Numbered from the stretch's first letter, positions 16,231-63,277 are shown. The stretch: 64,000 bases of DNA from a bacterium (GCA_024711295.1 JANJTB010000033.1:76617-140616), one strand, 5' to 3'. Notes: generated by a model from the sequence alone, not told the origin. A program made the numbers and translations.

Positions 16231-16246
16231 GATTTATGTTTTGCAA

Positions 16247-17341: not shown

Positions 17342-17438
17342 TTAAAAATAATGCAAATAAGTAATTTTTATTTGATTTTTTATGAAAAAAAGTGTTATAT
17401 TCGTTTTTAAGTGTTTATTTTAAAATAATAATAAAATA

Positions 17439-18872: not shown

Positions 18873-18887
18873 AAAAGAAATAGATGT

Positions 18888-20213
18888 ATGAGCGATAGTA
18901 ACACAATATTGAATTATCTTAACGAAGGCAACTTCGAGAAATTTCTCCATAATTCGCATGAGTTGCCTCATGATTATTGGAATGATTTCAAGAACTTAAG
19001 GTCATTAATCAGTGCTATCAGGTTCAAAGACTTGGGAATGAGAGATTATATTTATCGTTCAGTTCTTAATCTTGACGATAAATTTAAACCTATTGCAGCA
19101 AATTATATTATAGACTTTTTGTATCATATCGAAAAAGAACTTCGCAACCTTGCTTCGGACCTTTTGATAAAATTAGGTGAACATTCAAATCAGAATTTAC
19201 TTCAACTTTTATCTGAAGAAGATGTTGACGTAAAGAAATTCGCTTGCGATATTCTTGGATACACAGGTACTGATGAAGAAATTCCTGACATAGTAATGCT
19301 CTTGAACGACAAAGATATGAATGTTTTTAATTCGGCGGTAGAGTCAATCGGAGCGATATTCGAAAGGCATAAAGAAAAGATAGGATTAGCTGATTCTATG
19401 GTTAATTTACTAATCAGCATCTACAATGTAAATAATCTTGATACTAAGCCGGTGATTATTGAGTCAATAGCAAAGATAGGTGGTGATATTGCAGTTGATT
19501 TTCTTGTTGATTTACTTGATAAGGAAGATGACATTTTTATCAAAACGGCAGTTATTGACGGCTTAGCAATATGTGGAAACTCTCCTTTTTTATGTGATAG
19601 ATTACTATCTGAACTCAATAATTATCCGAACGAAATACAACCTGTGATTTTGAAAACAATCATCGCAATATCTTTCAGAATAGGTCATGAAGTAAATATA
19701 AGTGATGAAGTAAGGCATATTGCATGGGCTTCGATGCAGGATATTGAACCTGACATTCGAACAGCCGGATTATTAGCTCTCAATGGCAATTATACCAAAG
19801 AAGATATTCCTCTTGTTGTTGACCAATATATCAATAATTCAGATGAATTGAGATATTATATTTTAACCAATTTATTCAATGACAATAATATCGAGTTATT
19901 TGAATTCTTTCTTCAAAATTTCTTGTCAAAAATTGAAAGTGGCGACAACAATGTATCTTTATTCGAGATGATTGGTATAATCCATAATATTTCTGAGGAA
20001 ATTGAATATCAGAATTTATCCCATTTGTTAAAGGTATTTGTAGTCAACTTGAAAGATTTTATCAGGTTTGAGCAATATGAGATATTTGATAATCTTTACC
20101 AAGTTAATCATGATTCATTTAGAAGTATAATTGCCGAGTTATCTTTCTCGGAAGAAAATCCTGCTGAATTTACTCAGCTAAATAACTATTTACTCGAAAA
20201 TTATAATAATTAA
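18888..20213 (+). CDS. HEAT/ARM-like repeat protein of unknown function
   Basis: 441 aa, all-helical, acidic. Recurrent HEAT-like units (DVDVKKFACDILGYTG; DKDMNVFNSAVESIGAI; DTKPVIIESIAKIGG; DIFIKTAVIDGLAICG; DIRTAGLLALNG). Sits between the sigma-54 regulator and cheR. Confidence 0.6.
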   Translation: MSDSNTILNYLNEGNFEKFLHNSHELPHDYWNDFKNLRSLISAIRFKDLGMRDYIYRSVLNLDDKFKPIAANYIIDFLYHIEKELRNLASDLLIKLGEHSNQNLLQLLSEEDVDVKKFACDILGYTGTDEEIPDIVMLLNDKDMNVFNSAVESIGAIFERHKEKIGLADSMVNLLISIYNVNNLDTKPVIIESIAKIGGDIAVDFLVDLLDKEDDIFIKTAVIDGLAICGNSPFLCDRLLSELNNYPNEIQPVILKTIIAISFRIGHEVNISDEVRHIAWASMQDIEPDIRTAGLLALNGNYTKEDIPLVVDQYINNSDELRYYILTNLFNDNNIELFEFFLQNFLSKIESGDNNVSLFEMIGIIHNISEEIEYQNLSHLLKVFVVNLKDFIRFEQYEIFDNLYQVNHDSFRSIIAELSFSEENPAEFTQLNNYLLENYNN

Positions 20214-20217
20214 AGTT

Positions 20218-21135
20218 ATGGCAGGCAGTCTATTTAATTTTGGAGCTAAGAAGACGGAAGTACCCGAACGAAAACCGAGTACCCCTGTCAGTACATTTAA
20301 TTCTACCGAGATGACAAATGATGAGTTCAATAAATTACGAAACATAATTTATGACCTAAGCGGAATTTATTTTACTGACAGCAAAAAATATCTTCTCGAA
20401 AGCAGAATATCAAAGAGAATTGCTGCAAATAATATGAAATCATTCAACGAGTACATAAATTATTTGCAGTCACCTATAAGCAGAAAAGAGCTTGGTGATT
20501 TGTTTGAGGCAATTACAATAAATGAAACTTATTTCTTCAGAGTACCCCAGCAATTCGAAGTACTCGAGCATGTAATAATACCTGAATTAATAAAATTAAA
20601 ATCAGGACAGCCCAATCCTACAATCAGGATTTGGAGTGCTGCTTCATCAAGCGGTGAAGAAGCCTACACAATTGCATTAATAATATTGGAACGCCTAAAG
20701 CCAATATATCCATATGTAAATTTTCAGGTAATCGGTACAGACATAAATAATGCTGTTATCGACCAGGCGAGAAAAGCTGTTTATAAGGAGTATGCTATTC
20801 GAAATATACCCGAAAATTTGTTAAAAAAATATTTTTTATCACAAGACGGGTTGTATATTCTTAAAGATGATGTAAAAAGACTGGTCAGATTCAGCAACCT
20901 AAATCTTTATGATTCATCTGCAGTCAGGGCTATTCCTCAATGTGATGTAATTTTCTGCGCAAATGTATTGATTTATTTCGATATCCCATCCAAACAAAAA
21001 GTGGTATCTGATTTGCATAGTGTTCTTACGAAAGGCGGATATTTATTTATCGGATATTCCGAGTCCTTGCATGGTATCTCAAAAGCATTTAAATTAGTAC
21101 ATTTACCTAAAGCAATGGCTTATCAAAAAGATTAA
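20218..21135 (+). CDS. cheR: Chemotaxis protein-glutamate O-methyltransferase CheR
   Basis: CheR N-domain (FNKLRNIIYDLSGIYFTDSKKYLLESRISKR, TINETYFFR). SAM-binding fold (RIWSAASSSGEEAYTIA, IFCANVLIYF). Confidence 0.85.
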   Translation: MAGSLFNFGAKKTEVPERKPSTPVSTFNSTEMTNDEFNKLRNIIYDLSGIYFTDSKKYLLESRISKRIAANNMKSFNEYINYLQSPISRKELGDLFEAITINETYFFRVPQQFEVLEHVIIPELIKLKSGQPNPTIRIWSAASSSGEEAYTIALIILERLKPIYPYVNFQVIGTDINNAVIDQARKAVYKEYAIRNIPENLLKKYFLSQDGLYILKDDVKRLVRFSNLNLYDSSAVRAIPQCDVIFCANVLIYFDIPSKQKVVSDLHSVLTKGGYLFIGYSESLHGISKAFKLVHLPKAMAYQKD

Positions 21136-21151
21136 CGGAGATAAAAACAAT

Positions 21152-21517
21152 ATGTCAAAAGTAATATTAGTAGTTGAAGATTCGCCATCAATCAGAAAAT
21201 TTATCACTCTTGCTCTTAAGATTCAGAGCTTTACTGTAATAACTGCAGAAGACGGTATGCAAGCTCTCGAAATCCTAACTCAGAATAATGCCATTGATTT
21301 AGTTTTAACTGACTTAAATATGCCTAACATGGATGGTATTAAATTGATTCAGGAAATTCGAAGAATTGAAATATACAAAGAATTACCGATTATTATCCTT
21401 TCGTCTCTTACAAGTGAAAGAGACATCAAAGAAGGACTTGATGCAGGAGCAAACTCATATTTAATCAAGCCTTTCAACACAAAAAAAATTCAATACGAGA
21501 TATCGAAATATTTATAA
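21152..21517 (+). CDS. Single-domain response regulator (CheY-like)
   Basis: 121 aa REC domain: VVEDS, LVLTDLNMPNMDG, IIILSS, LIKPF. Confidence 0.85.
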   Translation: MSKVILVVEDSPSIRKFITLALKIQSFTVITAEDGMQALEILTQNNAIDLVLTDLNMPNMDGIKLIQEIRRIEIYKELPIIILSSLTSERDIKEGLDAGANSYLIKPFNTKKIQYEISKYL

Positions 21518-21545
21518 ATGTCGCATAATAAATTAGGTTGTTTAT

Positions 21546-21914
21546 ATGAAGTTTTTAGTTGTAGATGATTCGCCAACCATGCGTAGGATTGTTATTAACG
21601 CTCTCAAAACATTTGGGCATGAAGAATTTGTAGAAGCATCAGACGGCATAGAAGCGTTCGAAGCGTTGCACACCGAAAACGTTGATTTTGTGGTTACTGA
21701 CTGGAATATGCCTAATATGAGCGGGTTGGAATTAACTCAAAAAATACGAAGCGATGCTAAATACCAGAATTTACCAATTTTGATGGTAACCACCAGAGGT
21801 TTAAAAACAGATATTGTTGAGGCACTGAAAGCCAGAGTCAACAATTATGTTGTCAAACCATTTACACCTCAAATTTTAAAAGAAAAAATTGACGCTATCC
21901 TTGGGCCAAGGTAA
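21546..21914 (+). CDS. cheY: Chemotaxis response regulator CheY
   Basis: 122 aa. Canonical CheY signature: FLVVDDSPTMRRI, FVVTDWNMPNMSGLEL, ILMVTT, YVVKPFT. Confidence 0.85.
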   Translation: MKFLVVDDSPTMRRIVINALKTFGHEEFVEASDGIEAFEALHTENVDFVVTDWNMPNMSGLELTQKIRSDAKYQNLPILMVTTRGLKTDIVEALKARVNNYVVKPFTPQILKEKIDAILGPR

Positions 21915-21926
21915 TAAGGAATAATT

Positions 21927-23015
21927 ATGAAAAACAATGAAATAGCTTCCCTACTAAAAAAAGCAGATGAACTAAGAGCATTATTTATACTTGGGCAAAA
22001 AGTTATCCCTTTCCTCGAAGAAATTTTTATCTTCGTAAGTGACATCCAACCACTTCTTGATGAGATAAATCGCTCTATTACCGAAAATCTAAAGCGAATG
22101 CCCAGCGCTTCTCAACAATTATCCAAAGTCACTGAAGCAACAGAGCTTGCAACAACAGAAATTATGGACTTGGTTGATGGAATATTATTTAATGTTGATA
22201 CTTTAGAGTCCAATTTCACTAGACTTAACAAATTAGTAGATTTGCAAAGTGAAAAAACTCTTGAAACACTTAGAACGCTTTATGATGCTATTGAAGCAGG
22301 CGTTGACGCAAAAGATTTGCTACCCGAACTTAAAAATATTATTGATTGTTTTGATAATAAAATAATATTAGAGAAAGACGAAACAATAAATAATTCAAAA
22401 GAGATTTTGAAAACTATACAAAATGACTCTACTTCAATTATGATGTCATTACAAGTTCAGGATATTACTTCCCAACAGATCGCTGCTGTAAACAAGCTCC
22501 TCGAAACACTTCAAACAAGACTTTCAGGTATTCTAACCCATTTCAAAGAATCAGATCTTAATGAAATGATAAGTGCAGAAGTCGAAGCCGAAAGTACTGA
22601 TTATATCAGAGTTTCAAAATTACACAGAGAGATTGCTTTCGACCCTCATGCTGTAGATTCTATTGCTAATAAAGGATTTAAGCAAAATGAAGTTGATCAA
22701 TACATCAAAATACATAAAGAAAACTTAGCAGAGAATGATGATTTTCAGTCACAAGATGATATTGACAAGTTTTTCAGACAGCAAAACGATGATAATCAAG
22801 AATCGCCAAGCGTCGTTAATGATAATATTTCTGAGGCAGAAAGCACTGAGTTTGAAAATCAGTCAGAAATTGATAATAATTCTTATAATAATGATGATTT
22901 AGTAACTAATTTAAGTAATGCTCAGGCAAGCAGTGATGATATAAGTAACTTGCTTGATAATATGGACATGGACGAGCCTTTTTCGCAGGAAGATATTGAC
23001 AAAATGTTTAAATAA
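21927..23015 (+). CDS. cheZ: CheZ-like CheY-P phosphatase with a long acidic C-terminal extension
   Basis: MPSASQQLSKVTEATELATTEIMDLVD resembles the CheZ P..R..L.YV..TE.AA helix. IMMSLQVQDITSQQIAAVNKLLETLQ matches the CheZ catalytic QDFQDLTGQ (D...Q) block. The D/E/N/S-rich tail ends DEPFSQEDIDKMFK, a CheY-binding-peptide-like terminus. Confidence 0.55.
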   Translation: MKNNEIASLLKKADELRALFILGQKVIPFLEEIFIFVSDIQPLLDEINRSITENLKRMPSASQQLSKVTEATELATTEIMDLVDGILFNVDTLESNFTRLNKLVDLQSEKTLETLRTLYDAIEAGVDAKDLLPELKNIIDCFDNKIILEKDETINNSKEILKTIQNDSTSIMMSLQVQDITSQQIAAVNKLLETLQTRLSGILTHFKESDLNEMISAEVEAESTDYIRVSKLHREIAFDPHAVDSIANKGFKQNEVDQYIKIHKENLAENDDFQSQDDIDKFFRQQNDDNQESPSVVNDNISEAESTEFENQSEIDNNSYNNDDLVTNLSNAQASSDDISNLLDNMDMDEPFSQEDIDKMFK

Positions 23016-23026
23016 GGGAATGTAAG

Positions 23027-25060
23027 ATGAGTCAGCCTTTTGAAGATGAAGAAATGATGGAAATTCTTGAGAGTTTTTTAGTTGAGACAAACGAGCTTTT
23101 AGAAATTCTTACTACCTCATTGATTGAAATGGAAAATAACCCTACCGATACTGAGGTTATCAATAAAATTTTCAGATATTTTCATACAATAAAAGGTACC
23201 TCTTCCTTTATGGGATTTAACGACATTTCTAAATTAACCCATGCAGCAGAAGAAATTTTAAACAAAGTAAGGCGTAATGAGCTTTCTGTAAGCCAAAATA
23301 TAATTGATGTATTGATGGATTCTAGAGATAGATTGGACTTAATGACTCAAGCCATTACAAATCCCGGCGAACCAATTACTTATAATGATTTAGTGAAAAG
23401 ACTTGAAGCATTATCCAAAGGGGATAATATTGATGAAGTAGTAGAAAATAATGAAACAATTACTTCAAAAAGTGATGCAGATTTATCTGATGACACTTAC
23501 TTAGACAAAGTACTTAATAACACTGAAATGTTCACAGGTCATGGTGATTTCGACCCGGATGAGCTTGAACTACTTGAAAAAGCATTTGCAGAAGTAAATA
23601 ATTCATTCTGGAGCACTAATTCAGATGGATCACAAATTTTAAAAAATGAGATTTCGAATAATGCCACCTCTGATATAGAAGTTAACAATTTGTCTGAAAT
23701 AGTTGAAATTTCAACTGATGCAACAGATAAACTACAGGCTTCAATCAAAGAACCTATCGAAATTCCTGAATTAGAAAGTTCCGACAAACCACAACCAGAG
23801 CAGATCAACAACGTTGCAGCATCAGGTCAATCAATTTCAAAAAATGCCCCTAAACCACTATCACAAACAGAAACAATAAGAATTGATGTGAAACGCGTTG
23901 AAAGTTTGATGGACTTGTCAGGCGAGCTGGTATTGGGAAGAAATCGTTTATCTCAGATTGCAAGCAGAGTATCCGGTGCAACTGACTTTAAAGAAATTTT
24001 ACAGGATTTGCTCGAAACAACTAATCAAATTGATTTAATTACTTCAGAAATTCAAACATCTGTTATGAAAATGAGGATGGTGCCAATAGGAAGATTATTC
24101 CAAAAAGCACCGAAGATAGTTCGAGACCTATCTAAAGAATTCGGTAAAAAAATCGAATTAACTCTCGAGGGTGAGGATACCGAGGTTGACAGAGGAATTA
24201 TTGAAGAGCTTAACGATCCTTTGGTACACATGTTACGAAACTCATGCGACCACGGAATTGAAACCTCAGAAGAACGTAAATCTACCGGTAAAAAACCTGC
24301 TGGGCAGATTAAACTGACTGCTTACCACGAAGGTAATCATATCATTTTAAAAATTATCGATGATGGAAAAGGTATTGACCCAAATGTTATTCTAAAAAAA
24401 GCCATCGAAAAGGAATTTATAACAGCAGAACAATCAAAACACATGACTGACTGGGAGATTTTACAACTCATTTTCAAACCTGGATTTTCAACTGCAAAAA
24501 CTGTAACAAGTGTATCAGGCAGGGGTGTTGGGATGGATGTTGTAAAAACCAATATAAATAAATTGAAAGGAATAATCGAGATTAATTCAACTCCTGGCCA
24601 AGGTAGTGAATTCGTAGTAAAGTTACCACTTACCCTCGCAATTATTCAGGGATTACTTGTAAAATCTTCAGGAAACATTTATGCACTCCCCCTTAGCTCA
24701 GTTGTCGAAGTAGTGTCCTATGATGAGTCTTCAGTCAGTTACGTTAACAACAGTAAAGTAATCAGAATTAGGAGTGAGGTAATTCCACTGATAACTTTAG
24801 ATGATATTACAGGTGACCCTGATATACATGAAATCGGTTCTAAGTACGTTGTTAATTTAGCGATAGGTATTGACCGCGTAGGTTTAGTTGTGAATAAGCT
24901 TTTAGGTCAACAAGAAATTGTAATTAAATCACTGGGTAATTACCTTACAAATATTGAGGGTATAGCCGGCTCCACCATCATAGGTGATGGCAGAGTAATA
25001 ATGATACTTGATACTCAAGGGATTATTAAAAAATATAAGAAACATCAGCATAATGGATGA
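23027..25060 (+). CDS. cheA: Chemotaxis histidine kinase CheA
   Basis: HPt P1 (FRYFHTIKGTSSFMG). Dimerisation region (IRIDVKRVESLMDLSGELVLGRNRL). HATPase (LVHMLRNSCDHGIE, DDGKGID, GRGVGMDVV). C-terminal CheW-like P5 (QGLLVKSSGNIYALPLSSVVEV...). Confidence 0.9.
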   Translation: MSQPFEDEEMMEILESFLVETNELLEILTTSLIEMENNPTDTEVINKIFRYFHTIKGTSSFMGFNDISKLTHAAEEILNKVRRNELSVSQNIIDVLMDSRDRLDLMTQAITNPGEPITYNDLVKRLEALSKGDNIDEVVENNETITSKSDADLSDDTYLDKVLNNTEMFTGHGDFDPDELELLEKAFAEVNNSFWSTNSDGSQILKNEISNNATSDIEVNNLSEIVEISTDATDKLQASIKEPIEIPELESSDKPQPEQINNVAASGQSISKNAPKPLSQTETIRIDVKRVESLMDLSGELVLGRNRLSQIASRVSGATDFKEILQDLLETTNQIDLITSEIQTSVMKMRMVPIGRLFQKAPKIVRDLSKEFGKKIELTLEGEDTEVDRGIIEELNDPLVHMLRNSCDHGIETSEERKSTGKKPAGQIKLTAYHEGNHIILKIIDDGKGIDPNVILKKAIEKEFITAEQSKHMTDWEILQLIFKPGFSTAKTVTSVSGRGVGMDVVKTNINKLKGIIEINSTPGQGSEFVVKLPLTLAIIQGLLVKSSGNIYALPLSSVVEVVSYDESSVSYVNNSKVIRIRSEVIPLITLDDITGDPDIHEIGSKYVVNLAIGIDRVGLVVNKLLGQQEIVIKSLGNYLTNIEGIAGSTIIGDGRVIMILDTQGIIKKYKKHQHNG

Positions 25061-25802
25061 AATAAACAATATAGATAACTTACTTAATGATTTCGAGTTC
25101 GAGTCACCTAACTTATCCAGTGAGGATAAGACAGATAAAATCAAAGCTTATGATAAACCAATAATAGGCCTGGATACAGGTACTGAAGATATTGATAATA
25201 GCAACAACCTGATTGAACCTCTTCTGACCGAAGAAGACTTGTTGGATGTAATTCCAAGTGCCGGCAAAAGAGCCGGTAACTTCAGGTCAGAACACAATCT
25301 ACCACCAAGTAATCTCATCAAAAAGAATGAAGTTAAGTCAAAAAAGGTTCAAGAACCCGAAGATTTCCAGAAAATCCTTGCCAAAGACCTGAATATAAGA
25401 GAGCAGGACTGGGCTGAGATTGCGCAGGAAATATCTCAAACAGACCTGCTGGATGATAATTTTCGCGATTTTATCGAACTTCCTAAAATTTCAGGTGACG
25501 AGAGAAATTTGATAGGCAAAAGACTTATACCTGCTAACAAAATTAGCCAGGTAGACAAAAAAGTAGAAATTTCTGACCGTGACTTACCTGATGATATTGA
25601 CCATAGGACTTCTATCGAGATCAATAGAGATGAGAAGGGCGATATCGAAAGCATTACAGTTTATTGTAAATGTGGTGAGGTAACCGATATCAAATTTGAC
25701 TATGATGACAGCTCCAACTCAGAGGAAACTGAGTATTTTCACTCATCAGGTACAATTGATAATCTTAAATTAGAACAGCTTAGACCCGGTAATTCGAAAT
25801 AA
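25053..25802 (+). CDS. Hypothetical acidic protein, start overlapping the cheA stop
   Basis: The ATG at 25053 overlaps the end of cheA (stop at 25058-25060) by 8 nt. 249 aa, D/E-rich. Conserved-looking C-terminal block IESITVYCKCGEVTDIKFDYDD. No family recognised. Confidence 0.45.
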   Translation: MDEINNIDNLLNDFEFESPNLSSEDKTDKIKAYDKPIIGLDTGTEDIDNSNNLIEPLLTEEDLLDVIPSAGKRAGNFRSEHNLPPSNLIKKNEVKSKKVQEPEDFQKILAKDLNIREQDWAEIAQEISQTDLLDDNFRDFIELPKISGDERNLIGKRLIPANKISQVDKKVEISDRDLPDDIDHRTSIEINRDEKGDIESITVYCKCGEVTDIKFDYDDSSNSEETEYFHSSGTIDNLKLEQLRPGNSK

Positions 25803-50646: not shown

Positions 50647-50773
50647 GATATTTCAATATTTCTTAAATAATTCTTATTCGATATATAATGAATATTATTG
50701 TTAAGCTTAAAAAAATAAGCCCCCAAAAAAAGATCGAGGGCTTTCATAAATATCACTTTGGGTATTAAAATAA

Positions 50774-52117
50774 CTATTTTGCAGTGATAACTATCTCTGT
50801 TCTTCTGTTTAGTCGTCTTCCAAACTCTGTTTTATTCGATGCTAGTGGCTTTTTCTTACCATATCCTATAGTTTGAATCCTCGATGATGATATCCCCTGC
50901 TTTACCAAATAGCTTTTAACACTTTCTGCTCTGAGCAAAGATAAATCATCATTCAATACATCACTACCTTTAGAATCCGTATGCCCCTCGATTAAGATAT
51001 TAATATTCGGTTTAGCTGCCATAAAGTCCGATAAAATGTTAAGCTCTCTGACAACATCAGGTAAAGTAGCACTAGCAGTCGAAAACAGCAGATTTTCAAT
51101 AATTAATTTTCTTCCAAGTTCAACTATTGGGATTGTTTTTTTAATCAGCTGATTTTTATCTGAAGAAAACAATGCAATTTCTATTGAATCAGGAACTGTT
51201 TCCTGATCAGACATATAAACCAGATTAAATAAGTTTGTCAACTGATTGGAGAAATTATCCAGAATAGTTGAAAATGGATAATCTATATCATAGAAAGTGC
51301 CTCTCGTTTTACTAGACATCAATTTGTAGTTAACCAATTTTGGAGGTACAATCGAGAATAATCTTAAATCATATTTTTGCATCATTTCTGTTGAGCTCTG
51401 AGTGGTTTGGTCGGTAACACCATACCCATCTTCACCTCTTTGATGATATGGAGCGTCAGTGATAATAACTGCAACTTTATTTGCTTCTCTCCGCCATTGG
51501 ATTTGTTTGCATGCTGCTTCGATTGCTTCAAGAGCATTTTCCTTTTCGTCCCCACCACCTTTTGCTCTAACGGGACTAATCCAATTAAGAAAATCTGAAA
51601 CATTTGAAGTAGGGTTATAAACTTTTTCAATATCATCCGAAAAAAGTATTAATCCAATCCTGTAATCAATTCCTCTTTTTACTAATGATTGGGTAAAATT
51701 TACAATATTTGATTTAATTGAGTTGATTTGTGGCTGCATCGAACCTGTGACATCCATCAATACAACAAAATCAACAGGTATATTGTCAGCTGCAGGAATT
51801 TTCTCAACAGACATTACTTTTTTTTCTACGCTATTTTCGAAGACATAAAGATTATCAGCACTTAATGTATCTAAGGGATCGCCCAATTTATTATAAGCCT
51901 CAATCATTATCTTTATCATTGGGAACTTCGAAATATCTACACTTCGGACAGTAATTTCAATTTCCCTTTTCGAGGACTGTACTTTTGCATCCTGTAGAAT
52001 TTCTTTTGCTCTTTGTAAGGTGTCAATTTGATTATTCGAAGCAAACCGGATGCTTTGCGAATAAGCAAATAGTCCTGTAATCATCGTAAGTAATAATATT
52101 AAACCTAACTTTTTCAT
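50774..52117 (-). CDS. Secreted vWA-domain protein with a C-terminal OmpA peptidoglycan-binding domain
   Basis: Signal peptide MKKLGLILLLTMITGLFAYSQ. vWA MIDAS block DFVVLMDVTGSM. OmpA-C ILIEGHTDSKGSDVLNDDLSLLRAESV and NRRTEIVI. Confidence 0.8.
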   Translation of the reverse strand: MKKLGLILLLTMITGLFAYSQSIRFASNNQIDTLQRAKEILQDAKVQSSKREIEITVRSVDISKFPMIKIMIEAYNKLGDPLDTLSADNLYVFENSVEKKVMSVEKIPAADNIPVDFVVLMDVTGSMQPQINSIKSNIVNFTQSLVKRGIDYRIGLILFSDDIEKVYNPTSNVSDFLNWISPVRAKGGGDEKENALEAIEAACKQIQWRREANKVAVIITDAPYHQRGEDGYGVTDQTTQSSTEMMQKYDLRLFSIVPPKLVNYKLMSSKTRGTFYDIDYPFSTILDNFSNQLTNLFNLVYMSDQETVPDSIEIALFSSDKNQLIKKTIPIVELGRKLIIENLLFSTASATLPDVVRELNILSDFMAAKPNINILIEGHTDSKGSDVLNDDLSLLRAESVKSYLVKQGISSSRIQTIGYGKKKPLASNKTEFGRRLNRRTEIVITAK

Positions 52118-52200
52118 ATATTTATTTTATTAATTTTTCCTCTATGCTACATCTGACAAGTCAGAAATAATCCTTTTTGGATTATATATAAATTGATAAC

Positions 52201-52240
52201 ATCCCCTTTAGCAATAAAAGTTTATGCCAAAGGGGATGTT
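52201..52240 (-). terminator. Hairpin in the 139-nt spacer between the third and fourth genes of the envelope operon (attenuator or partial terminator?)
   Basis: CATCCCCTTT (52201-52210) pairs with AAAGGGGATG (52231-52240). This is the most G+C-rich stem in a very AT-rich spacer. The downstream minus-strand sequence is only moderately T-rich. Confidence 0.35.
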
Positions 52241-52256
52241 TCATAGTAATTAAACC

Positions 52257-53723
52257 TTATATAGTAAGACGTAATACAGGCGAAATCATAAAGAAGTTCT
52301 TTACTTCAAATGGGCGTGCATCACGTAACGGTGTTGAATATTTTCCTTCAAGATATAACCAATTTCCTAACAAAGGCAGATATAACCTTCCTAAAAATAT
52401 TTGATTAGAAATCTGAACACTTGCTCCAAATGGGAAAGCAGCCTGGCTACGGTATTCAAGTTTGAAATGAATCCATTCTGCAATATCTTCTGGTTTGTAG
52501 CTCTTTAGATTTCTTACATTCATAGTGGTCATTCTTGTTTCTTCGCCAGTTGCAACAGGTTCCTGATAAACGCCTGTTTCAACAACTTCAGAGTAGTTGA
52601 TACCTAAATCAAAACGGAAATAGTTTTCTGGATTCTTCTTATCCAGCCACCAATGGTAAAAAGCAGTTATTTGACCTGTAGCACGCAATAAATGAGCTAC
52701 ATGATTAATTCTGAATGTACGTGGGTCATTGATATCAAATTCAATTTCTCTGCCTAATTGCTCAGTCGGTATCATAGCATAAGTGCCAATATCAATAGTT
52801 TCTGTTTCTACTTTTCTCAGAGGTAATTCTAAGTTAAGAGACAGACCGGCTTCTGGCATAAACCATGCATGTACATCTGTACCAAAAACAATTTTCCCAC
52901 CTGGACCAGCATTCAATAATCTGTTTGGAATCCAGCTCATCAATGAATTATCATTGTCAAGACCTGTTTGAATTCTATAACCACCGCCAAGGTAAGCGTT
53001 AATTAAGTATGGAATACCTTTACGAGTCTGAGGATCTTTGTTTATGTATAGTGGTCTCTGCAATAATATCTTACTTTCGCCTGCAGTCCAGAATGGATAA
53101 CCAACCTGATCAGTACCCATTATCGAGCGAATCCAAAATCCACTTTCTCCGACTTTAAGAGCTTGTTCGAATAATGAAAGTGAGAAAGCGTGGTCAACAT
53201 TTGTTGGTCTTTCGATATAGTCAACAATTATGTCAGCTTGCGAAGGTGTAACCGGCATTTCTCTAGGTATATCCGAAAAACAATAATCTCTTCTTGACTG
53301 TCTTGTTTCCCAAGGCATACCTCTATCTAAACCCTGATAAACGTATTCGCCATTTAAGAACCCGATGATAGTGCTGCTCATAACCTCAGAGATTTGAACG
53401 GCATTCATTGATTCTTTACCGCATGTAATCGAAAGAATTTCGAAAGGTTCGTCCTGATATTCTTTAGGAGATGCTAAAATTTCAATATCTTCACGACTTA
53501 AATTATCTTTTTTGAAGCCTTTGTAAACAAAAGCGGAATAAATTTGAGCCATTAAATCAGGCTCGCATACTTTCCATCTCGGAAAGTAAGATACAATTTC
53601 AGGGTCAATCGTTGTAAGCGAATCTAGTATGCCCTGTCTGTCAATTGCCTGTGACTTGAGCTCCGGTGCGTTAAAACCGAAATAAACTGTCGCAAAAATT
53701 AATATAACTAAATATTTTTTCAT
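52257..53723 (-). CDS. Hypothetical secreted protein, C-terminal beta-barrel-like module (paralogous to the C-terminus of 53762-55483)
   Basis: Signal peptide MKKYLVILIFATVYFGFNAPELKSQ. C-terminal block FPFGASVQISNQIFLGRLYLPLLGNWLYLEGKYS...FEVKNFFMISPVLRLTI aligns with the neighbouring gene product. No family recognised. Confidence 0.5.
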   Translation of the reverse strand: MKKYLVILIFATVYFGFNAPELKSQAIDRQGILDSLTTIDPEIVSYFPRWKVCEPDLMAQIYSAFVYKGFKKDNLSREDIEILASPKEYQDEPFEILSITCGKESMNAVQISEVMSSTIIGFLNGEYVYQGLDRGMPWETRQSRRDYCFSDIPREMPVTPSQADIIVDYIERPTNVDHAFSLSLFEQALKVGESGFWIRSIMGTDQVGYPFWTAGESKILLQRPLYINKDPQTRKGIPYLINAYLGGGYRIQTGLDNDNSLMSWIPNRLLNAGPGGKIVFGTDVHAWFMPEAGLSLNLELPLRKVETETIDIGTYAMIPTEQLGREIEFDINDPRTFRINHVAHLLRATGQITAFYHWWLDKKNPENYFRFDLGINYSEVVETGVYQEPVATGEETRMTTMNVRNLKSYKPEDIAEWIHFKLEYRSQAAFPFGASVQISNQIFLGRLYLPLLGNWLYLEGKYSTPLRDARPFEVKNFFMISPVLRLTI

Positions 53724-53761
53724 AGCTTATCTTTAAATATTTTCAACTTCTAAATTATTAA

Positions 53762-55483
53762 TTAAAAATTAACGATGAATCTTGCCATAGGCATAAATAC
53801 GCTCTTGTTTTCCCATTCTCTCGGCTCGCTTGCAAAAGCTTTGAAATAGCCTTTCGCATCAAGTCTTAAAGAGAAAGTATTCTTTACTAATGGTACCTGT
53901 AACCAAATATTGGTATAAATACCTTCATCGAAGTATTGAGCGGACATACCAAAAGGAGTAGCAACATTTCGTGCCATAAATTCTACACGACCTGAAATAC
54001 CACCGATAGCTTCATCATCAAGGCGTTCGAAACTGATTGAATTTCTTCTTGTATTTGGGTCTTCCACGGAGCGATTATACCATCTTTCAATTCCGTAAAT
54101 AGTACCGCCAAGTCCGAAACGCAATAAATAATTATCGTCGATAAATACGCCGAATGTATAATGCAATTGAGCATTGTATCTAATCATAAAGTCATTATCT
54201 TTAGTATTAGTTACATAAGAATCAGGGTCTAAATTTTTCTGTGTTAATGGTCCAACCTCAGCATCGCCGAGTATATAAGCAAAACTGGCATTAAAAATAC
54301 CACTCTTAGGAATTACGGCAATCGGGAAATCTGCCTCTCCTGTGATACCTACACCGCCATAAGTTAACTTACGGTCAACACCATACAAATCTTTGCTTAA
54401 AGATGACCAACCGTTTGTAGGCAATACTAATCCGAGTTTCACTCCTCCCCAGATAGCATTTACAGAAAGTCTCTCGCTCCAGAATGATGGGTAATTAATC
54501 GCTTCAGCACCATATTTTAACTCAATACCATACTTTGGCAAGTCACCGTTTGTAACTCTGGAAAGTGTGTCAGAAACTCCATCACTGTAAGTCATCATTG
54601 GATAGTCATAGGCTCTCCAGCTGATTAAATCAGGACTAACTATAACCTCATTAAATTTATCAGTTATTTCCAGTGCCTGACCTTCGGCTATTCTCTTGAA
54701 CAATTGAATATCATAAGAGCTTACTGTTCCCTCTTTGTTTAGGATTGACTTTGTAACACCGGCTTTAGCAGGGAAGAAAGATATTAATGTACCAATACCT
54801 TGTGCTTCGAGAGTTTTGTCCTCAACGTTACCCTGCATAAATGAATTCATCACCAAATCATAAAGATTATCTGCTCTGTAATCAGTTGGATTAAGAGCCA
54901 ATTCCTTCATTTCAGGATTAGTGAAAATTAGATTTGCAGCTTTATTGTCAAGGTTTCTTTTTAAAGAAGTAGAACCCTCATAGTCAATAATCATTGCAAT
55001 CAAATTATGTGGTGTAAGAGCATCCTGTTCTTTACGTGTTGTAACAACGTAAACATTTTGGATTCTCTTAACATCACCACGTGGTTTGTAATAAGTATAA
55101 ATACCTTCAATATTCGCTGGAATTTCGAGACCTCTACCAACCAAAGCTCTTTGCACAGCTGATAATGAAGCGTTATTTTTTGCTTCTCTTTCGATTATGC
55201 TGAGAGTAGTCGCATCAACACCCTGAATAACAGAAGCGTCAGATTTAACGACTTCTCCACCATCGCCGGAGGCAGCATCTTTCTCTCTGATAATCTTATT
55301 TACATCATTTATATTCTTAAGTCTATAAACCGACACCAACGAAAATCTGTAATTTTTGTAACTACTAAGAATATTTTCCAATTTCATTCTGAATGACTGG
55401 TCACCCTGAGCGGAAACCAGGACAGGTAAAAGAATTGAAATTAAAACAGTATAAACTACTAACTTAATTATTTTCTTAAACAT
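53762..55483 (-). CDS. Hypothetical outer-membrane protein (signal peptide, beta-barrel-like C-terminal half)
   Basis: Signal peptide MFKKIIKLVVYTVLISILLPVLVSAQ. C-terminal half has alternating-strand character and ends TPFGMSAQYFDEGIYTNIWLQVPLVKNTFSLRLDAKGYF...FMPMARFIVNF (terminal F). No family recognised. Confidence 0.5.
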   Translation of the reverse strand: MFKKIIKLVVYTVLISILLPVLVSAQGDQSFRMKLENILSSYKNYRFSLVSVYRLKNINDVNKIIREKDAASGDGGEVVKSDASVIQGVDATTLSIIEREAKNNASLSAVQRALVGRGLEIPANIEGIYTYYKPRGDVKRIQNVYVVTTRKEQDALTPHNLIAMIIDYEGSTSLKRNLDNKAANLIFTNPEMKELALNPTDYRADNLYDLVMNSFMQGNVEDKTLEAQGIGTLISFFPAKAGVTKSILNKEGTVSSYDIQLFKRIAEGQALEITDKFNEVIVSPDLISWRAYDYPMMTYSDGVSDTLSRVTNGDLPKYGIELKYGAEAINYPSFWSERLSVNAIWGGVKLGLVLPTNGWSSLSKDLYGVDRKLTYGGVGITGEADFPIAVIPKSGIFNASFAYILGDAEVGPLTQKNLDPDSYVTNTKDNDFMIRYNAQLHYTFGVFIDDNYLLRFGLGGTIYGIERWYNRSVEDPNTRRNSISFERLDDEAIGGISGRVEFMARNVATPFGMSAQYFDEGIYTNIWLQVPLVKNTFSLRLDAKGYFKAFASEPREWENKSVFMPMARFIVNF

Positions 55484-55535
55484 TTCTAAATCCTTACACT
55501 TAGATTATAATTAATTATCAATATTATAAAATATA

Positions 55536-57821
55536 TTAACGACGTCTTGGTCCGCCTCTTTCAGGCTCCCAGTCAATTGGAATTACTAATTCACGTTCTT
55601 CGGGTTGAGATTTTACGTTATTAATAGGATTTGTAGCAACACCAATTACCGTAACTTTGAAATCTCCTCTAACCTTACTTTGTCCAGGTTCCAGTTTACC
55701 CTGAACATCAAATTCTAAGACATAACCGTTTTCAGGATCACCATCAAGTGATGGTTCGGTAGTTGCCTGATATGATGTTAAGCCGTTCAATTTATCAACT
55801 TCACCCTTCACTGAAAGATTTACAACAGCCTTTTTGCTATCGTCACCGGTACCAGGAGCAGTTACATTGATATTTGTTACTCTAACTTTGAATTTAGCTG
55901 ATGTACCTGAGCATGATACTCTGAGAGAACTTGTATTGATAGATGGCTCTTCTTGTCTGATATCATAAGATACAGTAGGTAAAATGTCAATTTCTTGTTG
56001 AGTATAAGGTTGAACCCATGCAATTCTTACGTTAACTTTTCTAGCATCAGGAGTAAACTTGATACCTGTTTGATTAGTAACAGCTAAACCTGTTATAGGA
56101 GCACGCTGGTTATCAACATCTGAAGTTACATAAATCTTGAACTCATTAGGTTTAATCTTACCGCCTGATGTTGGTTCAGCATTGAATACTAATGGATATC
56201 CAAAGTAAGCATAAATTGGAATTTCGGTTTTGATTTTTCTTTCACTAGCATCAGTAAGTGAAGACTTAAATACTTCAAGAGTTTTGCTTTCGACTCTGCT
56301 CGAACGACCTGATAGTCTGTGAACAACAGAATATTCATATTTGCCCGGAGGTAATACTTTATCTACTGAAGCACGATACATGCGGCGCTCGTTTGCAACA
56401 GGAGTAGAATAACCTAAACCGGCAATTTCATCCAAAGGTTTAAATATTAACGAAGCAACTCTGTTGCCGGCAGCATCCATAACTGAACCTTCCAAAGTGT
56501 TTTGGCCTGGTTGATATGGGCTTATCTGACATTCAAATACAGCAGGAAGCTTGTCGAATGTAGCAACATAATCAGGAATTGTTGCGATTGGCTCAGCAAC
56601 ATTCGGCTTAGGAGTTACAACACGAATATTAAACTCGATTGAACCACGGTTTTGGTCAAAGTTTGAAGACATACCCGGAGCAAGGAGCTTAACAATATAA
56701 CCATAAAGGTTGATATTACCAACTACTTCTTCGGCTTTTTCTTCGGTAGCAGCTTTCAATTTTGCTTCTGCAAGCTGTTTGTCGAAAGCTAATATATCAC
56801 CATCTTTTGATAAATCTTCTAATGTAGGAAGAGTATATTTATCTAATCTGGATGTCAATTCTTTTTTAACTTTTCTTAAATCTGATACTTTTAATTGAAC
56901 GGTACCAATATTTACAGTAGCATCATCGCTTATTTGTTCAGGAGTAACACCGGCTTTGACACCGAGAATACGGTTTGTTCGTGATGAGAATCTTAGTTTG
57001 TACCATCCGGCTTGAGAAGGAGGCTGGAAATTGACAACAAATGAACGTTTTTGAATTTCATTGCTGGCAGTGATATTCTTCATAGTTTCTACATCAGAAT
57101 AAAAGAATGCACTATCTTCGGGTACTTCTTTAGGATTGAAAGTAGGTCCAATTTTTTTCTTGTTTGCTTCCGGGTACATCGGCTTAAGCTGAGAAATTGA
57201 AATTTCTGATAAATTGATATTATTGAATGTACCATCTTTATCCATATTTAATTCCTGCAAGCCCAAAAATTCCCAGTTAACATCAGGTAACGTTCCTGCT
57301 ATTTTGGAGCCCGGTGCTAAAGAATTGAAGTCGATCTTTTGCTCTTTAATCTGATCATCTGTAGGAAACATAGGTGCACTATTCGGATTTTGGTCGGAAC
57401 TAAAAAACACCTGATATTGAATTTGCTCAACATTCGCAAGCTCGACAAGCTTTTTGATACGATTAACGTATTCTTTTTCAGTCTCAAACTCACGTTTGGC
57501 AAGTGATGTACTTACATCAGTTACACCGACCTCGACAATATACTGTCGGTTTGATTTAATTTCACCACCCATAATAGTTTTCATATCAATTCCGGGGGGT
57601 GGAATTGTAATCTCATCTTGCGGCCTTGTATTGATACCTTCGGTACCTGATCCAGACTGCAGCTGCGAAAGAATACTTTCAACTATTCTCATAGCTTCTT
57701 TTTGTTTTTTATGCAAGTGTTCTTCGGCTTCGTCTCTTTCGACGATGATAATTAAAAGCTCAAGAACTACTGCCAGATAAAGCACGAAATAAACCTTTCC
57801 GGCTCCTCCACCTTTCGACAT
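55536..57821 (-). CDS. Hypothetical bitopic inner-membrane protein with a large beta-rich periplasmic region
   Basis: 761 aa. MSKGGGAGK, then a single TM helix VYFVLYLAVVLELLIIIV. Charged helix (ERDEAEEHLHKKQKEAMRIVE), a second coiled-coil-like stretch (FDKQLAEAKLKAATEEKAEE), ~450 aa of Ig-like beta-rich sequence, and a basic tail ERGGPRRR. First gene after a 370-bp AT-rich spacer. Confidence 0.5.
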   Translation of the reverse strand: MSKGGGAGKVYFVLYLAVVLELLIIIVERDEAEEHLHKKQKEAMRIVESILSQLQSGSGTEGINTRPQDEITIPPPGIDMKTIMGGEIKSNRQYIVEVGVTDVSTSLAKREFETEKEYVNRIKKLVELANVEQIQYQVFFSSDQNPNSAPMFPTDDQIKEQKIDFNSLAPGSKIAGTLPDVNWEFLGLQELNMDKDGTFNNINLSEISISQLKPMYPEANKKKIGPTFNPKEVPEDSAFFYSDVETMKNITASNEIQKRSFVVNFQPPSQAGWYKLRFSSRTNRILGVKAGVTPEQISDDATVNIGTVQLKVSDLRKVKKELTSRLDKYTLPTLEDLSKDGDILAFDKQLAEAKLKAATEEKAEEVVGNINLYGYIVKLLAPGMSSNFDQNRGSIEFNIRVVTPKPNVAEPIATIPDYVATFDKLPAVFECQISPYQPGQNTLEGSVMDAAGNRVASLIFKPLDEIAGLGYSTPVANERRMYRASVDKVLPPGKYEYSVVHRLSGRSSRVESKTLEVFKSSLTDASERKIKTEIPIYAYFGYPLVFNAEPTSGGKIKPNEFKIYVTSDVDNQRAPITGLAVTNQTGIKFTPDARKVNVRIAWVQPYTQQEIDILPTVSYDIRQEEPSINTSSLRVSCSGTSAKFKVRVTNINVTAPGTGDDSKKAVVNLSVKGEVDKLNGLTSYQATTEPSLDGDPENGYVLEFDVQGKLEPGQSKVRGDFKVTVIGVATNPINNVKSQPEERELVIPIDWEPERGGPRRR

Positions 57822-58190
57822 GCTATATGCCTCCTAAACAATTCATATCAAATTTCTATTTTAACTATTTTAGTTTCAAACTTAGTAAACTATTCAAAAA
57901 TATCATAAAAAACGAAAAAACAAAATTTTGGAAAAAGAATTATGAATTTTAAACCAAAATCAAATTTAATATACAAAATAATTTTCTAATAATGAATATA
58001 ATATTAAGAAAATTTCATAATTTTAATTTTTTTTCTGATTTTTTATTTTACAAATTTTTACTAAATTATCAGAATTTTTGAAAATTAATTAATCTGTTTT
58101 CTATATTCAAATTTTTACAAACACTAATTTACTTTATTTCTCTTTAATATCAATAGATTTTTTTTCATTTTTAAATTTTATTAAAAAATA

Positions 58191-60695: not shown

Positions 60696-63125
60696 TTATT
60701 TCCAATAATCAATAGATAAAATTGGCATTGGAATGCCATTATTTTCAATCAGGAATTTTAAATCATCAAATTCTGTTTTTGCTTTTGGAATGTTAACTCC
60801 GAAAATGCTTCCGAACAAAGCAGAGAAATCAAAGAACTGGCCTGTAGGATATTCTTTGATATTAACTTTTTTATTTTTTGGGATACCGGCAGCTTCTTTA
60901 GCAATGTTGATTGCATCAATTAAAGTTCCTAAATTGTCAACCAAACCAATTTTCAATGCGTCGTTGCCAGTCCAAATTCTACCCTGAGCAATTTCATCCA
61001 CTTTTTCATAATCCATTTTTCTTGCTTTCGCAACTCTGGAAACAAAATCTTTGTACAATGTTTTAATCATTTTTTCTCTTTGCTCTATCTCGTCTTTATT
61101 AAGATTTCGTACAGGCAATCCTATAGGAATAAAAGGTAATGTGAAAGAATTACCCAAATCGGCATATTTTCCTTTTTTAACATAATCGTAAGTAATACCT
61201 AAAGAGTCTTTCAGCCCCTTGTCGTATATCCAGGCACCGATAACACCTATAGAACCTGTTATAGTATTCGGGGCAGCAACAATCTTATCTGCCTCCATTG
61301 ACAGCCAGTAACCACCGGAAGCAGCCACTGAGCCTTGTGAAACAATCAGAGGTTTTTTACCCTTATTTTCCTGTATCAGTTTGGAGATGTAATCAGAAGC
61401 CATAGCATCGCCTCCCGGAGAATCAACTCTCAATACAATTGCCTTAATTGATGATTTCTCGTACGCCATTCTTAATAAATCAGACAACATTCTTGCTCTT
61501 ATACCGGTATTTAAGTCACAAGCACCCTCAGCATAAATCACTGCTATACTTTTCTCATCTTCGCCCCATTTATTGTCAATAGGTTCAGGGTACATATCAT
61601 CAGCAAATATATTTTTGAGGCCGGCCGTTTTATCGTATTCTCTCATAAATTTTTGGAGATTATTCCACCTGTCGAATTTATCTACTAACTTCTTTTGTTG
61701 TGCTTCTTCAGGCATAAATCCCATTTGGTCATTAACCAAATTATCAAAGTTATCAGTTACTCCCTTTCTAGATTCAAGGATCTCATTCTTAGCCAACTCA
61801 TACCAGTCATCAACAAGTCTTTGTCGCTGCTCACGGTCACCTTCCGAAAATTCTTCTCTTGAAAAGTTCTCAGCTGCAGATTTATATTTGAAATATCTGA
61901 ATTCCTCATATCCAATATCTGACTTATCGAGCAACTTTTTATAAAAACTTCTACCTAAGGAATACCCTTCAATTGACACAAATCCAAGCGGGTCTATAAC
62001 AACTTCATCCCCTACTGATGCAAAATGGTAAATGTCAATATTAGCCCTGTCAATAAAAACAATTACTTTTTTGCCTTTAGACTTAATCTCTTTTAGTTTT
62101 TCTCTTATTTCCCAAAGCATAGTTCTCGAAGCAGATAATTGTGTAGCGTTTACAACTATACCTTTTACATTTTTATTATTTGAAGCTTCGTCTAGTGCAT
62201 CAAGTATTTTCAATAAAGTTTGGGAATTATCAAAAAATACATTTTTTATATATTTAATATTTGAACTTAGATCCAATATCTTATATTCCTGTCTTGCAAT
62301 AACATCTTCCAATACAGTTCTGTCTTTACCGCCAAATCTGATACCATAGGTTGAAGAAATTAAGCTGTTATCAGAATTTAATAAATTAATGTTTGATAAG
62401 TCTGAATTTCCGAAACTAAGATTGACTCCCAGAGTTATTCCCTCTGTCTTCATAAAACGACGAGCATTTATTCTTACTCCGGGAACAGGTTCCAATATTA
62501 TTCCTGCACTCCAGTTAATATCTTTAATATTCTGTTCATTCAACTGGGAAGCATCAGCATATAGTGTAATCAATTCATTGCCGAGTGGCCTTATGCCAAG
62601 CTCTACAACCGTTTCGGCATCTCGGTTATCGAGTGCAAAAGAATAATTACCCGCGATGGACAAATAAGATATTGGCCTGTACAATGCACCCACTGCCATC
62701 ATATTATTCGAACGTCTGATATTGCCACTTGTATTTGTCCAACCATAAGTGAGCCCAAGACCGAATACTTTACTGCCAAATCCCAGTGATGTTCTGTAGT
62801 CAGTATAGCTGTTATCCCCAATATTGACTGTCATGATACCGAAGCCTGACTGCTTCGACGAGTAGAAAAAACCATACTTATTGAAGTCAAAAAGCTTTTG
62901 GCCCATATCATTTACAAGAAATGCAAGGTCAAAATTTGAATTATTATAATTTAGCATAGCTGGATTATCAAAACCCCAAAGACCAGTCTTAAATGCACCC
63001 GGAGATGCCATCTGAAAGTCAACAAGATCGTAATAAGTTGTAAAAGAACGCTGACTACCTGTCTGAGAATAAATATTAGTTATGCTTAAAATAAGCAATG
63101 TTAAATATAGTACGTTTTTTTTCAT
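60696..63125 (-). CDS. sppA: Signal peptide peptidase SppA (67K, tandem S49 domains) with an extra N-terminal beta-barrel-like domain
   Basis: The start ATG at 63125 gives signal peptide MKKNVLYLTLLILSITNIYSQ. About 270 aa of beta-strand-rich sequence follows. Then two S49 domains (GIVVNATQLSAS...; IKAIVLRVDSPGGDAMASD, VSQGSVAASGGYWLSMEADKIVAAPNTITGSIGV). Confidence 0.85.
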   Translation of the reverse strand: MKKNVLYLTLLILSITNIYSQTGSQRSFTTYYDLVDFQMASPGAFKTGLWGFDNPAMLNYNNSNFDLAFLVNDMGQKLFDFNKYGFFYSSKQSGFGIMTVNIGDNSYTDYRTSLGFGSKVFGLGLTYGWTNTSGNIRRSNNMMAVGALYRPISYLSIAGNYSFALDNRDAETVVELGIRPLGNELITLYADASQLNEQNIKDINWSAGIILEPVPGVRINARRFMKTEGITLGVNLSFGNSDLSNINLLNSDNSLISSTYGIRFGGKDRTVLEDVIARQEYKILDLSSNIKYIKNVFFDNSQTLLKILDALDEASNNKNVKGIVVNATQLSASRTMLWEIREKLKEIKSKGKKVIVFIDRANIDIYHFASVGDEVVIDPLGFVSIEGYSLGRSFYKKLLDKSDIGYEEFRYFKYKSAAENFSREEFSEGDREQRQRLVDDWYELAKNEILESRKGVTDNFDNLVNDQMGFMPEEAQQKKLVDKFDRWNNLQKFMREYDKTAGLKNIFADDMYPEPIDNKWGEDEKSIAVIYAEGACDLNTGIRARMLSDLLRMAYEKSSIKAIVLRVDSPGGDAMASDYISKLIQENKGKKPLIVSQGSVAASGGYWLSMEADKIVAAPNTITGSIGVIGAWIYDKGLKDSLGITYDYVKKGKYADLGNSFTLPFIPIGLPVRNLNKDEIEQREKMIKTLYKDFVSRVAKARKMDYEKVDEIAQGRIWTGNDALKIGLVDNLGTLIDAINIAKEAAGIPKNKKVNIKEYPTGQFFDFSALFGSIFGVNIPKAKTEFDDLKFLIENNGIPMPILSIDYWK

Positions 63126-63277
63126 AATGCACCCATTTAAAAAAATCAAAATTAACTATTTAATCACTATTTACAAAAATATACGTTAACTTTGTGAATT
63201 AGTTCGATTATTTTGGTATTTTAGATAAATGCTTTTTTGTAAAATTCGTTTTTCTATAAATAAAAAACTTATAAAAA

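Follow-up and report, generated by a model that had tools for sequence, protein, structure and literature searches.

In a 64,000-nucleotide stretch of bacterial DNA (GCA_024711295.1 JANJTB010000033.1:76617-140616, in the following called the window), four consecutive genes on the minus strand form a cluster that is real, strictly conserved and restricted to an uncultured group of Kapabacteria and Ignavibacteria. Whether their products also make up a trans-envelope complex specific to these lineages, possibly docked to an ion-driven motor encoded at an unlinked site, we regard as evenly balanced. This reading is supported by the four-gene transcription unit and its strict synteny, by an architecture kept in two diverged groups of loci (P0434-type and L097-type), by the predicted compartment of the products and by a transmembrane (TM) block in gene 1. 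The order of the genes and their conservation, the domains they encode, the predicted folds and the functional residues that are kept were established directly, and from them we infer physical assembly, contacts between the subunits, coupling to a motor and a downstream output, which might be movement of surface adhesins, secretion or maintenance of the outer membrane. An earlier note on this DNA, made from the sequence alone, had recognised the parts list of a trans-envelope machine; every element of that list held up, and their union in one complex is what we propose here. The genes and the elements discussed with them are located in the window as follows.

55536..57821, minus strand, gene 1, open reading frame (ORF) of 761 amino acids (aa)
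53762..55483, minus strand, gene 2, ORF of 573 aa
52257..53723, minus strand, gene 3, ORF of 488 aa
50774..52117, minus strand, gene 4, ORF of 447 aa
57723..57797, minus strand, TM and juxtamembrane block of gene 1, residues 9-33, KVYFVLYLAVVLELLIIIVERDEAE, invariant columns in the gene 1 alignment
56652..57047, minus strand, second conserved module of gene 1, residues 259-390, a cluster of invariant columns
57822..58190, minus strand, AT-rich leader or promoter region of 369 nt, GC 0.13-0.22
52198..52240, minus strand, stem-loop with a 16-bp stem in the spacer between genes 3 and 4, beginning 17 nt past the gene 3 stop
50717..50743, minus strand, terminator-like hairpin with a 10-bp stem and a T-run, 31 nt 3' of the gene 4 stop

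The listing of ORFs reproduced exactly the coordinates and the spacers of 52, 38 and 139 nt (between genes 1 and 2, 2 and 3, and 3 and 4) that had been reported for four genes on one strand, and the AT-rich upstream region, given before as about 370 bp, measured 369 nt at the GC content listed above. This leader is common to gene 1 and a divergent HD-domain gene, and a Shine-Dalgarno sequence AGGAGG is located 8 nt 5' of the gene 1 ATG. The hairpin behind gene 4 marks the end of the transcription unit, as it is the sole minus-strand terminator-like site between positions 50400 and 58300. A sigma-70 promoter scan of the leader gave matches at chance level and is uninformative for this lineage, and an Rfam scan of the leader and the whole operon revealed no riboswitch or regulatory RNA, the only match being a chance-level miRNA on the hairpin between genes 3 and 4.

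The most striking feature of the cluster is the TM block of gene 1. The canonical family shows almost no variation over residues 1-75, and the motif of the block, 76-100% identical between subfamilies, with the consensus K-[VI]-Y-F-x-L-Y-L-A-V-x-x-E-L-L-I-x-I-V-E-R-D-[DE]-A-E, was found in 116 loci and in every variant subfamily. Comparison with diverged subfamilies led to 76-92% identity for residues 9-33 (60% in locus L107), whereas identity for residues 76-258 and 391-761 went down to 9-21%. Glu21 is located inside the hydrophobic span and is invariant both in the gene 1 alignment and in all variant subfamilies. Extreme constraint on a single TM helix is seen for helices packed inside another membrane complex, and subunits of the MotB/ExbD/TolR type are marked by a lone N-terminal TM helix with an invariant acidic residue. 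As the TM block is constrained while the periplasmic parts diverge, the helix, with its buried Glu and the ERDxAE cluster that follows, most likely packs against a conserved membrane partner.

Apart from residues 5-31 at the N-terminus, gene 1 has no hydrophobic segment. Modelling with AlphaFold2 (AF2) from a 34-sequence alignment (mean predicted local distance difference test score, pLDDT, 82.8) led to a single long helix for residues 8-55, comprising TM segment and stalk, followed by an alpha/beta region (residues 60-310), a helical module (residues 312-380) and about four immunoglobulin-like (Ig-like) beta-sandwich domains covering about 360 aa (residues 392-751). The model thus bears out the single N-terminal TM helix and the periplasm-spanning length claimed before, but shortens the Ig-like part, for which about 450 aa had been given. 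It supports a bitopic inner-membrane protein in N-in orientation whose periplasmic part is long and built of several domains; the N-in topology follows from the positive-inside rule, as the N-terminus is short and basic and an acidic ERDEAEE cluster is found after the helix. From the domain sizes the periplasmic part would be about 25-30 nm long, enough to reach the outer membrane. The second conserved module follows the pattern WYKLRF..RTNRILGV..NIGTVQL..LYGYI.KLLAPG and shows 28-62% identity between subfamilies.

Searches with gene 1 led to no named family. It matched no Pfam and no NCBIfam family (both at E<=0.1) and nothing in PADLOC, neither the single sequence nor the family profile matched a PDB entry (for the profile, GldM/PorM was absent at E<=1), and five variant homologues matched no Pfam family either. 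Foldseek against the PDB gave generic tandem Ig-like arrays only (receptor ectodomains, Ig-like domains of PrgB, cadherins and adhesin stalks), a result dominated by the multi-domain arrangement of the full-length model used as query. When the gene 1 profile was run with HMMER against 1.84e9 representative proteins, 213 matches at E<=1e-3 were obtained, and the family is therefore narrow. Two proteins of about 800 aa (P0478 and P0484) were observed to carry the conserved module of gene 1 (residues 244-381) and to end in a sub-threshold C-terminal sorting domain of the type IX secretion system (T9SS; 24-25 bits, cutoff 27).

Genes 2 and 3 both begin with signal-peptide-like segments and have no lipobox Cys. 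For gene 3, an AF2 model (mean pLDDT 81.8) shows about 14-16 long antiparallel strands over residues 179-487, up to the C-terminus, which is an invariant R-x-T-I (RLTI); between the signal peptide and the barrel region a periplasmic alpha/beta domain with three invariant Cys is found (residues ~40-170). The top list of a Foldseek search against the PDB consisted almost entirely of outer-membrane barrels (OpdO, AlgE, OmpF, FapF, OmpG, Occ porins and a designed 12-strand barrel), but all of these matches were weak and none had E<=1e-3; the model speaks for an outer-membrane beta-barrel as fold class and for no particular family. Gene 2 comprises a signal peptide, an N-terminal region of about 285 aa without recognised family and a C-terminal module resembling a beta-barrel. 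Of 37 homologues, 35 end in F, as in a beta-signal, and this ending and the homology to gene 3 suggest that the C-terminus is a barrel. The barrel character that the earlier note had ascribed to both proteins is in keeping with the fold prediction for gene 3 and with homology and the terminal F for gene 2.

The shared C-terminal module of these two proteins, also proposed before, was supported by profile-profile comparison (hhalign), with E=2e-5 and 77% probability over the C-terminal 130-185 columns, BLASTP being not significant (E=0.6). In a lineage with only three of the genes, both barrels match the gene 3 profile (99% probability, E ~1e-19, 410 columns) and each other (98% probability), and the two-barrel arrangement therefore arose by duplication. 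The paralogy of genes 2 and 3, as far as the profiles tell, is modest in the lineage of the window and clear in the sister lineage, and canonical gene 2 is by the same comparison the more diverged copy. Neither protein matched an NCBIfam family (E<=0.1), a PADLOC entry or, by single sequence or family profile, a PDB entry. Against Pfam (E<=0.1), 37 homologues of gene 3 gave no match and 37 of gene 2 only six unrelated single-member matches with E>=0.012. As the earlier note had stated, genes 1-3 are therefore placed outside the named families of Pfam, NCBIfam and PADLOC and match no PDB sequence.

Gene 4 could be assigned with confidence, and the fusion of a MIDAS-containing vWA domain to an OmpA domain was confirmed. 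It consists of a signal peptide, a beta-rich N-terminal region, the vWA domain with MIDAS (residues ~113-290) and the OmpA domain (residues 345-438). In Pfam, VWA_2 (49.9 bits) and VWA (47.7 bits; residues 116-266) were matched, both above cutoff, and OmpA (PF00691) was matched with 72.5 bits (cutoff 27.2); OmpA-type models of NCBIfam were also matched, as were OmpA domains in the PDB with E-values down to 3e-19, and the domain scores against MotB, MotY, PomB and ZorB models. In 73 orthologues, D122 and D221 of the MIDAS are invariant and T124-G-S126 at least 80% conserved, and these conserved residues point to a putative metal site. The peptidoglycan-binding motif GHTD..N..LS..RA is conserved in the same orthologues, with GHTD...LS..RA invariant. 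As gene 4 has no lipobox Cys and no hydrophobic 19-mer beyond the signal peptide, and thus no membrane anchor, the prediction is that it is soluble in the periplasm and attached to the cell wall.

Genes 1-3 have hundreds of homologues each, all unnamed and all from metagenome-assembled genomes of Kapabacteria, Ignavibacteria, Chlorobiota or Bacteroidota; gene 2 of the window shares 97% identity with a Candidatus Kapaibacterium sp. protein. In a species-level genome collection, canonical gene 1 patterns were matched in 139 species, and the use of two divergent subfamilies as queries led to 27 and 19 more loci, a few being canonical-type or L097-type copies. Synteny was analysed in 80 canonical loci, with the four proteins and six flanking genes as tblastn queries. 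Order and strand of genes 1 to 4 were the same in all 64 loci whose contig reached gene 4, so that the co-occurrence across genomes which the earlier note had left to be checked is strictly conserved. Clustering of ORFs placed the gene 1, 2, 3 and 4 families in 80, 73, 68 and 64 of the 80 loci respectively, and no other family was linked in more than 20; next in rank were housekeeping genes (HD, M28 peptidase, TrkA/H and phosphoribosyltransferase). No assembly occurred in more than one locus list when accession prefixes were compared, which points to vertical descent with a single operon type in each genome. Literature searches found no description of this operon.

The arrangement could be followed into diverged subfamilies. 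P0434-type loci (L108-L126) keep all four genes, and the more diverged loci L097, L098 and L100 contain gene 1, two barrels each matching both the gene 2 and the gene 3 profile, and then gene 4. P0468-type loci (L081-L094) consist of gene 1 and two gene-3-like barrels without gene 4, with unrelated housekeeping genes on either side. At L107 (9947-17479, GC 0.62) the TM motif is found on a 225-aa protein, overlapped by a following beta-rich gene of 379 aa, which together look like a split gene 1; next come two barrel-like genes with weak profile matches and an 804-aa Amidase_3 protein in the place of gene 4, so that this locus probably holds the three-gene core as well. As gene 4 is absent or replaced in such variants, the invariant core is gene 1 with two barrels, and its partner for binding the cell wall differs between subfamilies. 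At L099 (7266-8825 and 9950-11611), two gene 1-like genes stand in tandem, each with the motif YFFLYLAVICELLIVIVERDDAE. Many contigs with the operon (L004, L007, L011, L079, L093, L099, L123 and others) are deposited at NCBI under implausible names, namely Hyphomicrobiales, Alphaproteobacteria, Chromatiales, Chloroflexota, Desulfobulbaceae and Armatimonadota, which suggests mislabelled or contaminated bins; the operon could act as a lineage marker.

Taken as one complex, gene 1 would be anchored N-in in the inner membrane by its TM helix and would span the periplasm with its stalk, alpha/beta, helical and Ig-like domains. Its distal end would touch a heteromeric platform of genes 2 and 3, as diverged paralogous outer-membrane barrels with periplasmic N-terminal domains. 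The OmpA domain of gene 4 would fix the assembly to peptidoglycan, and its vWA/MIDAS site may clamp an acidic residue of a partner subunit. The leading candidate for the membrane partner of gene 1 would be an ion-driven stator of the 5:2 type (ExbB/TolQ/MotA/GldL-like) encoded elsewhere, and the complex would then convey energy or force outward across the periplasm, from inner to outer membrane.

The cluster resembles several known systems in plan, but fails the sequence- or linkage-based membership of each; judged by sequence, known families account for the two domains of gene 4 and for nothing else. No confident profile match places the proteins in the GldM/PorM, PorP/SprF or Bat systems that the earlier note had named as possible assignments, nor in Glt, Tol or TonB, and genes 1-3 show no secretin, Wza, T9SS or Sec-like signature in Pfam or NCBIfam. 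In GldM/PorM, a bitopic inner-membrane protein, a strongly conserved TM helix oriented N-in is followed by helical and then several beta-sandwich domains, long enough to reach an outer-membrane-associated complex, and the layout predicted for gene 1 would resemble this. Gene 1 has in addition an alpha/beta module, has no match to GldM_N or GldM_C in Pfam and no sequence or profile match in the PDB, and GldM/PorM is absent from its top 50 Foldseek matches; gldK, gldL and gldN (porK/L/N) are not adjacent, as only genes 1-4 are conserved in the 80 loci. In GldLM the protonatable Glu is located on GldL, whereas the buried charged residue here is a Glu on gene 1 itself.

The PorP-PorE pair of the T9SS joins a barrel in the outer membrane to a periplasmic partner whose OmpA_C domain binds peptidoglycan, and the cluster would similarly combine its predicted barrels with an OmpA-domain partner. 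Gene 4, however, has a vWA domain in place of TPR, PD40 or CarboxypepD_reg domains, a PorE-like neighbour in the window is not conserved with the operon, and an identity of the barrels with PorP/SprF or PorV was rejected (no match to these Pfam families in 74 homologues, none in NCBIfam). The likeness to MotB/ExbD/TolR is that gene 1 combines a single N-terminal TM helix with an invariant acidic residue, Glu21, and gene 4 shares with MotB and MotY an OmpA-type peptidoglycan-binding domain. Here the acidic TM helix and the OmpA domain are located on two proteins, and gene 1 is about three times larger. By sequence and linkage it falls outside these stator subunits, its periplasmic domains being unrelated, with no family match and no linked pentameric partner (MotA/ExbB/TolQ) in the window and related loci. 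In the BatA-E aerotolerance operon, vWA proteins anchored in the membrane (BatA/B) go with TPR partners (BatC/E) and BatD. This identity was rejected: gene 4 is OmpA-fused without a TM segment beyond the signal peptide, and the operon has neither a Bat-type nor a TPR gene as a conserved companion.

The Agl-Glt machinery of Myxococcus is reported to combine bitopic inner-membrane proteins on an unlinked TolQR-like motor with paired paralogous outer-membrane barrels and a vWA-domain protein (PMC9946355, PMC11761067). This is the same logic of parts (GltG/J, GltA/B and CglB) as in the cluster. The vWA protein here is predicted to be soluble, periplasmic and OmpA-fused, whereas CglB-type proteins are surface lipoprotein adhesins; the cluster also has no TonB-like C-terminal domain and comprises four genes compared to about 17. 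Glt identity was rejected for genes 1-3, as none matched an NCBIfam family at E<=0.1; this database includes Glt gliding models, and GltE was matched by an unrelated TPR gene in the same scan. TonB and TolA, like gene 1, have a single strongly constrained N-terminal TM helix and reach far into the periplasm; they connect to outer-membrane barrels and to peptidoglycan-binding or vWA modules, as gene 1 would, and a vWA-tailed class of such force transducers has recently been described (PMC12204202). In the cluster the vWA domain is on a separate protein, and TonB/TolA identity was rejected because the TM helix, KVYFVLYLAVVLELLIIIV, has no SHLS motif, no TonB_C or TolA domain is found and neither exbBD nor tolQR is linked.

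Several points weigh against a motor-docked trans-envelope complex. No gene of the MotA/ExbB/TolQ/GldL type was found in the window or linked in 126 related loci, these being the only regions searched, and no other conserved partner gene came up in the 126 loci. The invariant TM helix of gene 1 could instead reflect homo-oligomerisation or binding to another membrane machine. Gene 4 may be accessory and not integral, as it is missing in one lineage and a hairpin splits it from genes 1-3. The fold matches of gene 3 are weak (best E=1.7e-3, TM-scores <=0.48), the barrel of gene 2 is suggested by homology and a motif, and no homologue or locus list contains a cultured isolate.

In a variant of the motor reading, which we consider rather doubtful, gene 1 would found a class of its own among energised shafts that cross the envelope. 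The invariant TM helix with its Glu would serve as rotor or plug in an unrecognised type of ion-driven motor, docking into an unlinked 5:2 stator or using a proton path of its own and driving a dedicated barrel pair, as an independent Kapabacteria analogue of GldLM/T9SS or Agl-Glt. Alternatively, and in our view also somewhat unlikely, the cluster would be a passive tether that staples outer membrane, peptidoglycan and inner membrane together, sets the width of the periplasm or stabilises the outer membrane without energy input, the constraint on the TM helix then reflecting homo-oligomerisation or packing with lipids or a partner. Such a housekeeping envelope role would fit one operon type per genome and the wide vertical conservation, gene 4 is a classical peptidoglycan anchor, and no motor gene is linked at related loci. 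A purely structural anchor helix, however, rarely calls for 76-100% identity around an invariant Glu within the membrane when the remaining protein has fallen to 9-21%, and two dedicated barrels with large periplasmic domains exceed known tethers (Lpp, OmpA, Pal) in elaboration.

A conduit for export or secretion, with the barrels as outer-membrane channels for a polymer or protein in the manner of AlgE or FapF, gene 1 as inner-membrane and periplasmic adaptor and gene 4 as cell-wall brace, appears unlikely. The best-probability fold neighbours of gene 3 do include AlgE, which exports alginate, and FapF, a channel for amyloid secretion, but all of these matches are weak and generic for barrels; the gene 1 module of residues 244-381 also recurs in proteins with a sub-threshold T9SS sorting domain, but no secretin, Wza, T9SS or Sec-like signature was found, and none of the loci has a gene for a synthase, an ATPase, a substrate or a cargo linked to the operon. 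We think it quite improbable that the cluster is a lineage-specific periplasmic accessory of the flagellar motor, comparable to the MotY/FlgT rings, PflA/B or the spirochaete collar, with the TM helix of gene 1 next to MotAB and gene 4 acting like MotY. Two carriers of the operon, Kapabacteria Ch6 (L046) and Ca. Thermonerobacter thiotrophicus (L054), were reported to encode flagella and chemotaxis, Ch6 without type IV pili (PMC7509429, PMC6338057), in keeping with such a role, and a che cluster is present in the window. The OmpA domain of gene 4 matches MotB/MotY/PomB-type domains, although this similarity is generic; no flagellar gene is linked to the operon at any locus, genes 1-3 match no NCBIfam flagellar model, and outer-membrane barrels would be atypical as motor accessories. 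That the four proteins are independent and merely co-transcribed seems very improbable to us. It would accommodate the separability of gene 4, which is absent in one lineage and preceded by a hairpin, and would dispense with the single complex, which is a proposal. Order and adjacency are nevertheless kept in subfamilies whose proteins share only ~10-30% identity, and genes that stay linked for so long typically encode proteins in physical contact.

Three of the four protein families have not been described before and occur only in an uncultured lineage that has been little studied. Envelope-spanning machines such as Tol-Pal, TonB, T9SS/GldLM and Agl-Glt play a central part in powering outer-membrane processes in diderms, whose outer membrane has no energy source of its own, and the cluster shares their overall plan of inner-membrane anchor, periplasmic shaft, outer-membrane barrels and cell-wall brace. 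Should the Glu-bearing helix dock into a stator, the cluster would be an independent solution to energy transfer from the inner to the outer membrane and a new client or class for the 5:2 motor family. Even a structural role alone would leave three new protein families, a marker for the Kapabacteria lineage and Glu21 as a target for mutation.

Within the operon, the spacer between genes 3 and 4 folds with a minimum free energy of -39.2 kcal/mol (z=-4.9; none of 200 shuffles was as good). Of 64 loci, 60 have a hairpin of -15 kcal/mol or lower in this spacer; it starts within 40 nt of the gene 3 stop in 89% of loci, compared to 17% for the spacers between genes 1 and 2. The stem-loop has no canonical T-run and the terminator scan gave no call there; most likely it is a partial terminator or a 3' stabiliser of the transcript, setting the expression of gene 4 apart from that of genes 1-3, which fits gene 4 as a separable module.

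Of the envelope genes that the earlier note saw flanking the cluster, a PD40-OmpA gene, which is PorE-like, and an SppA gene are indeed present in the window, but neither is a conserved neighbour of the operon in the 80 canonical loci and they are thus not members of the unit. The SppA (60696-63149, minus strand) carries an N-terminal extension of about 300 aa outside SppA models, the TIGR00705 alignment starting from residue 303. A second PD40 and OmpA protein (5403-6869, minus strand) adjoins an OMP_b-brl_2 barrel (6885-7739, minus strand) in a PorE/Pal-like pairing. On the plus strand, a 1330-aa ORF (12238-16230) had no Pfam match at E<=1e-5, and a chemotaxis and signalling cluster (3364-4212 and 16241-25802) encodes CheW-CZB, a PAS histidine kinase, a sigma-54 response regulator, a HEAT-repeat protein, CheR, a CheZ-like protein and CheA.

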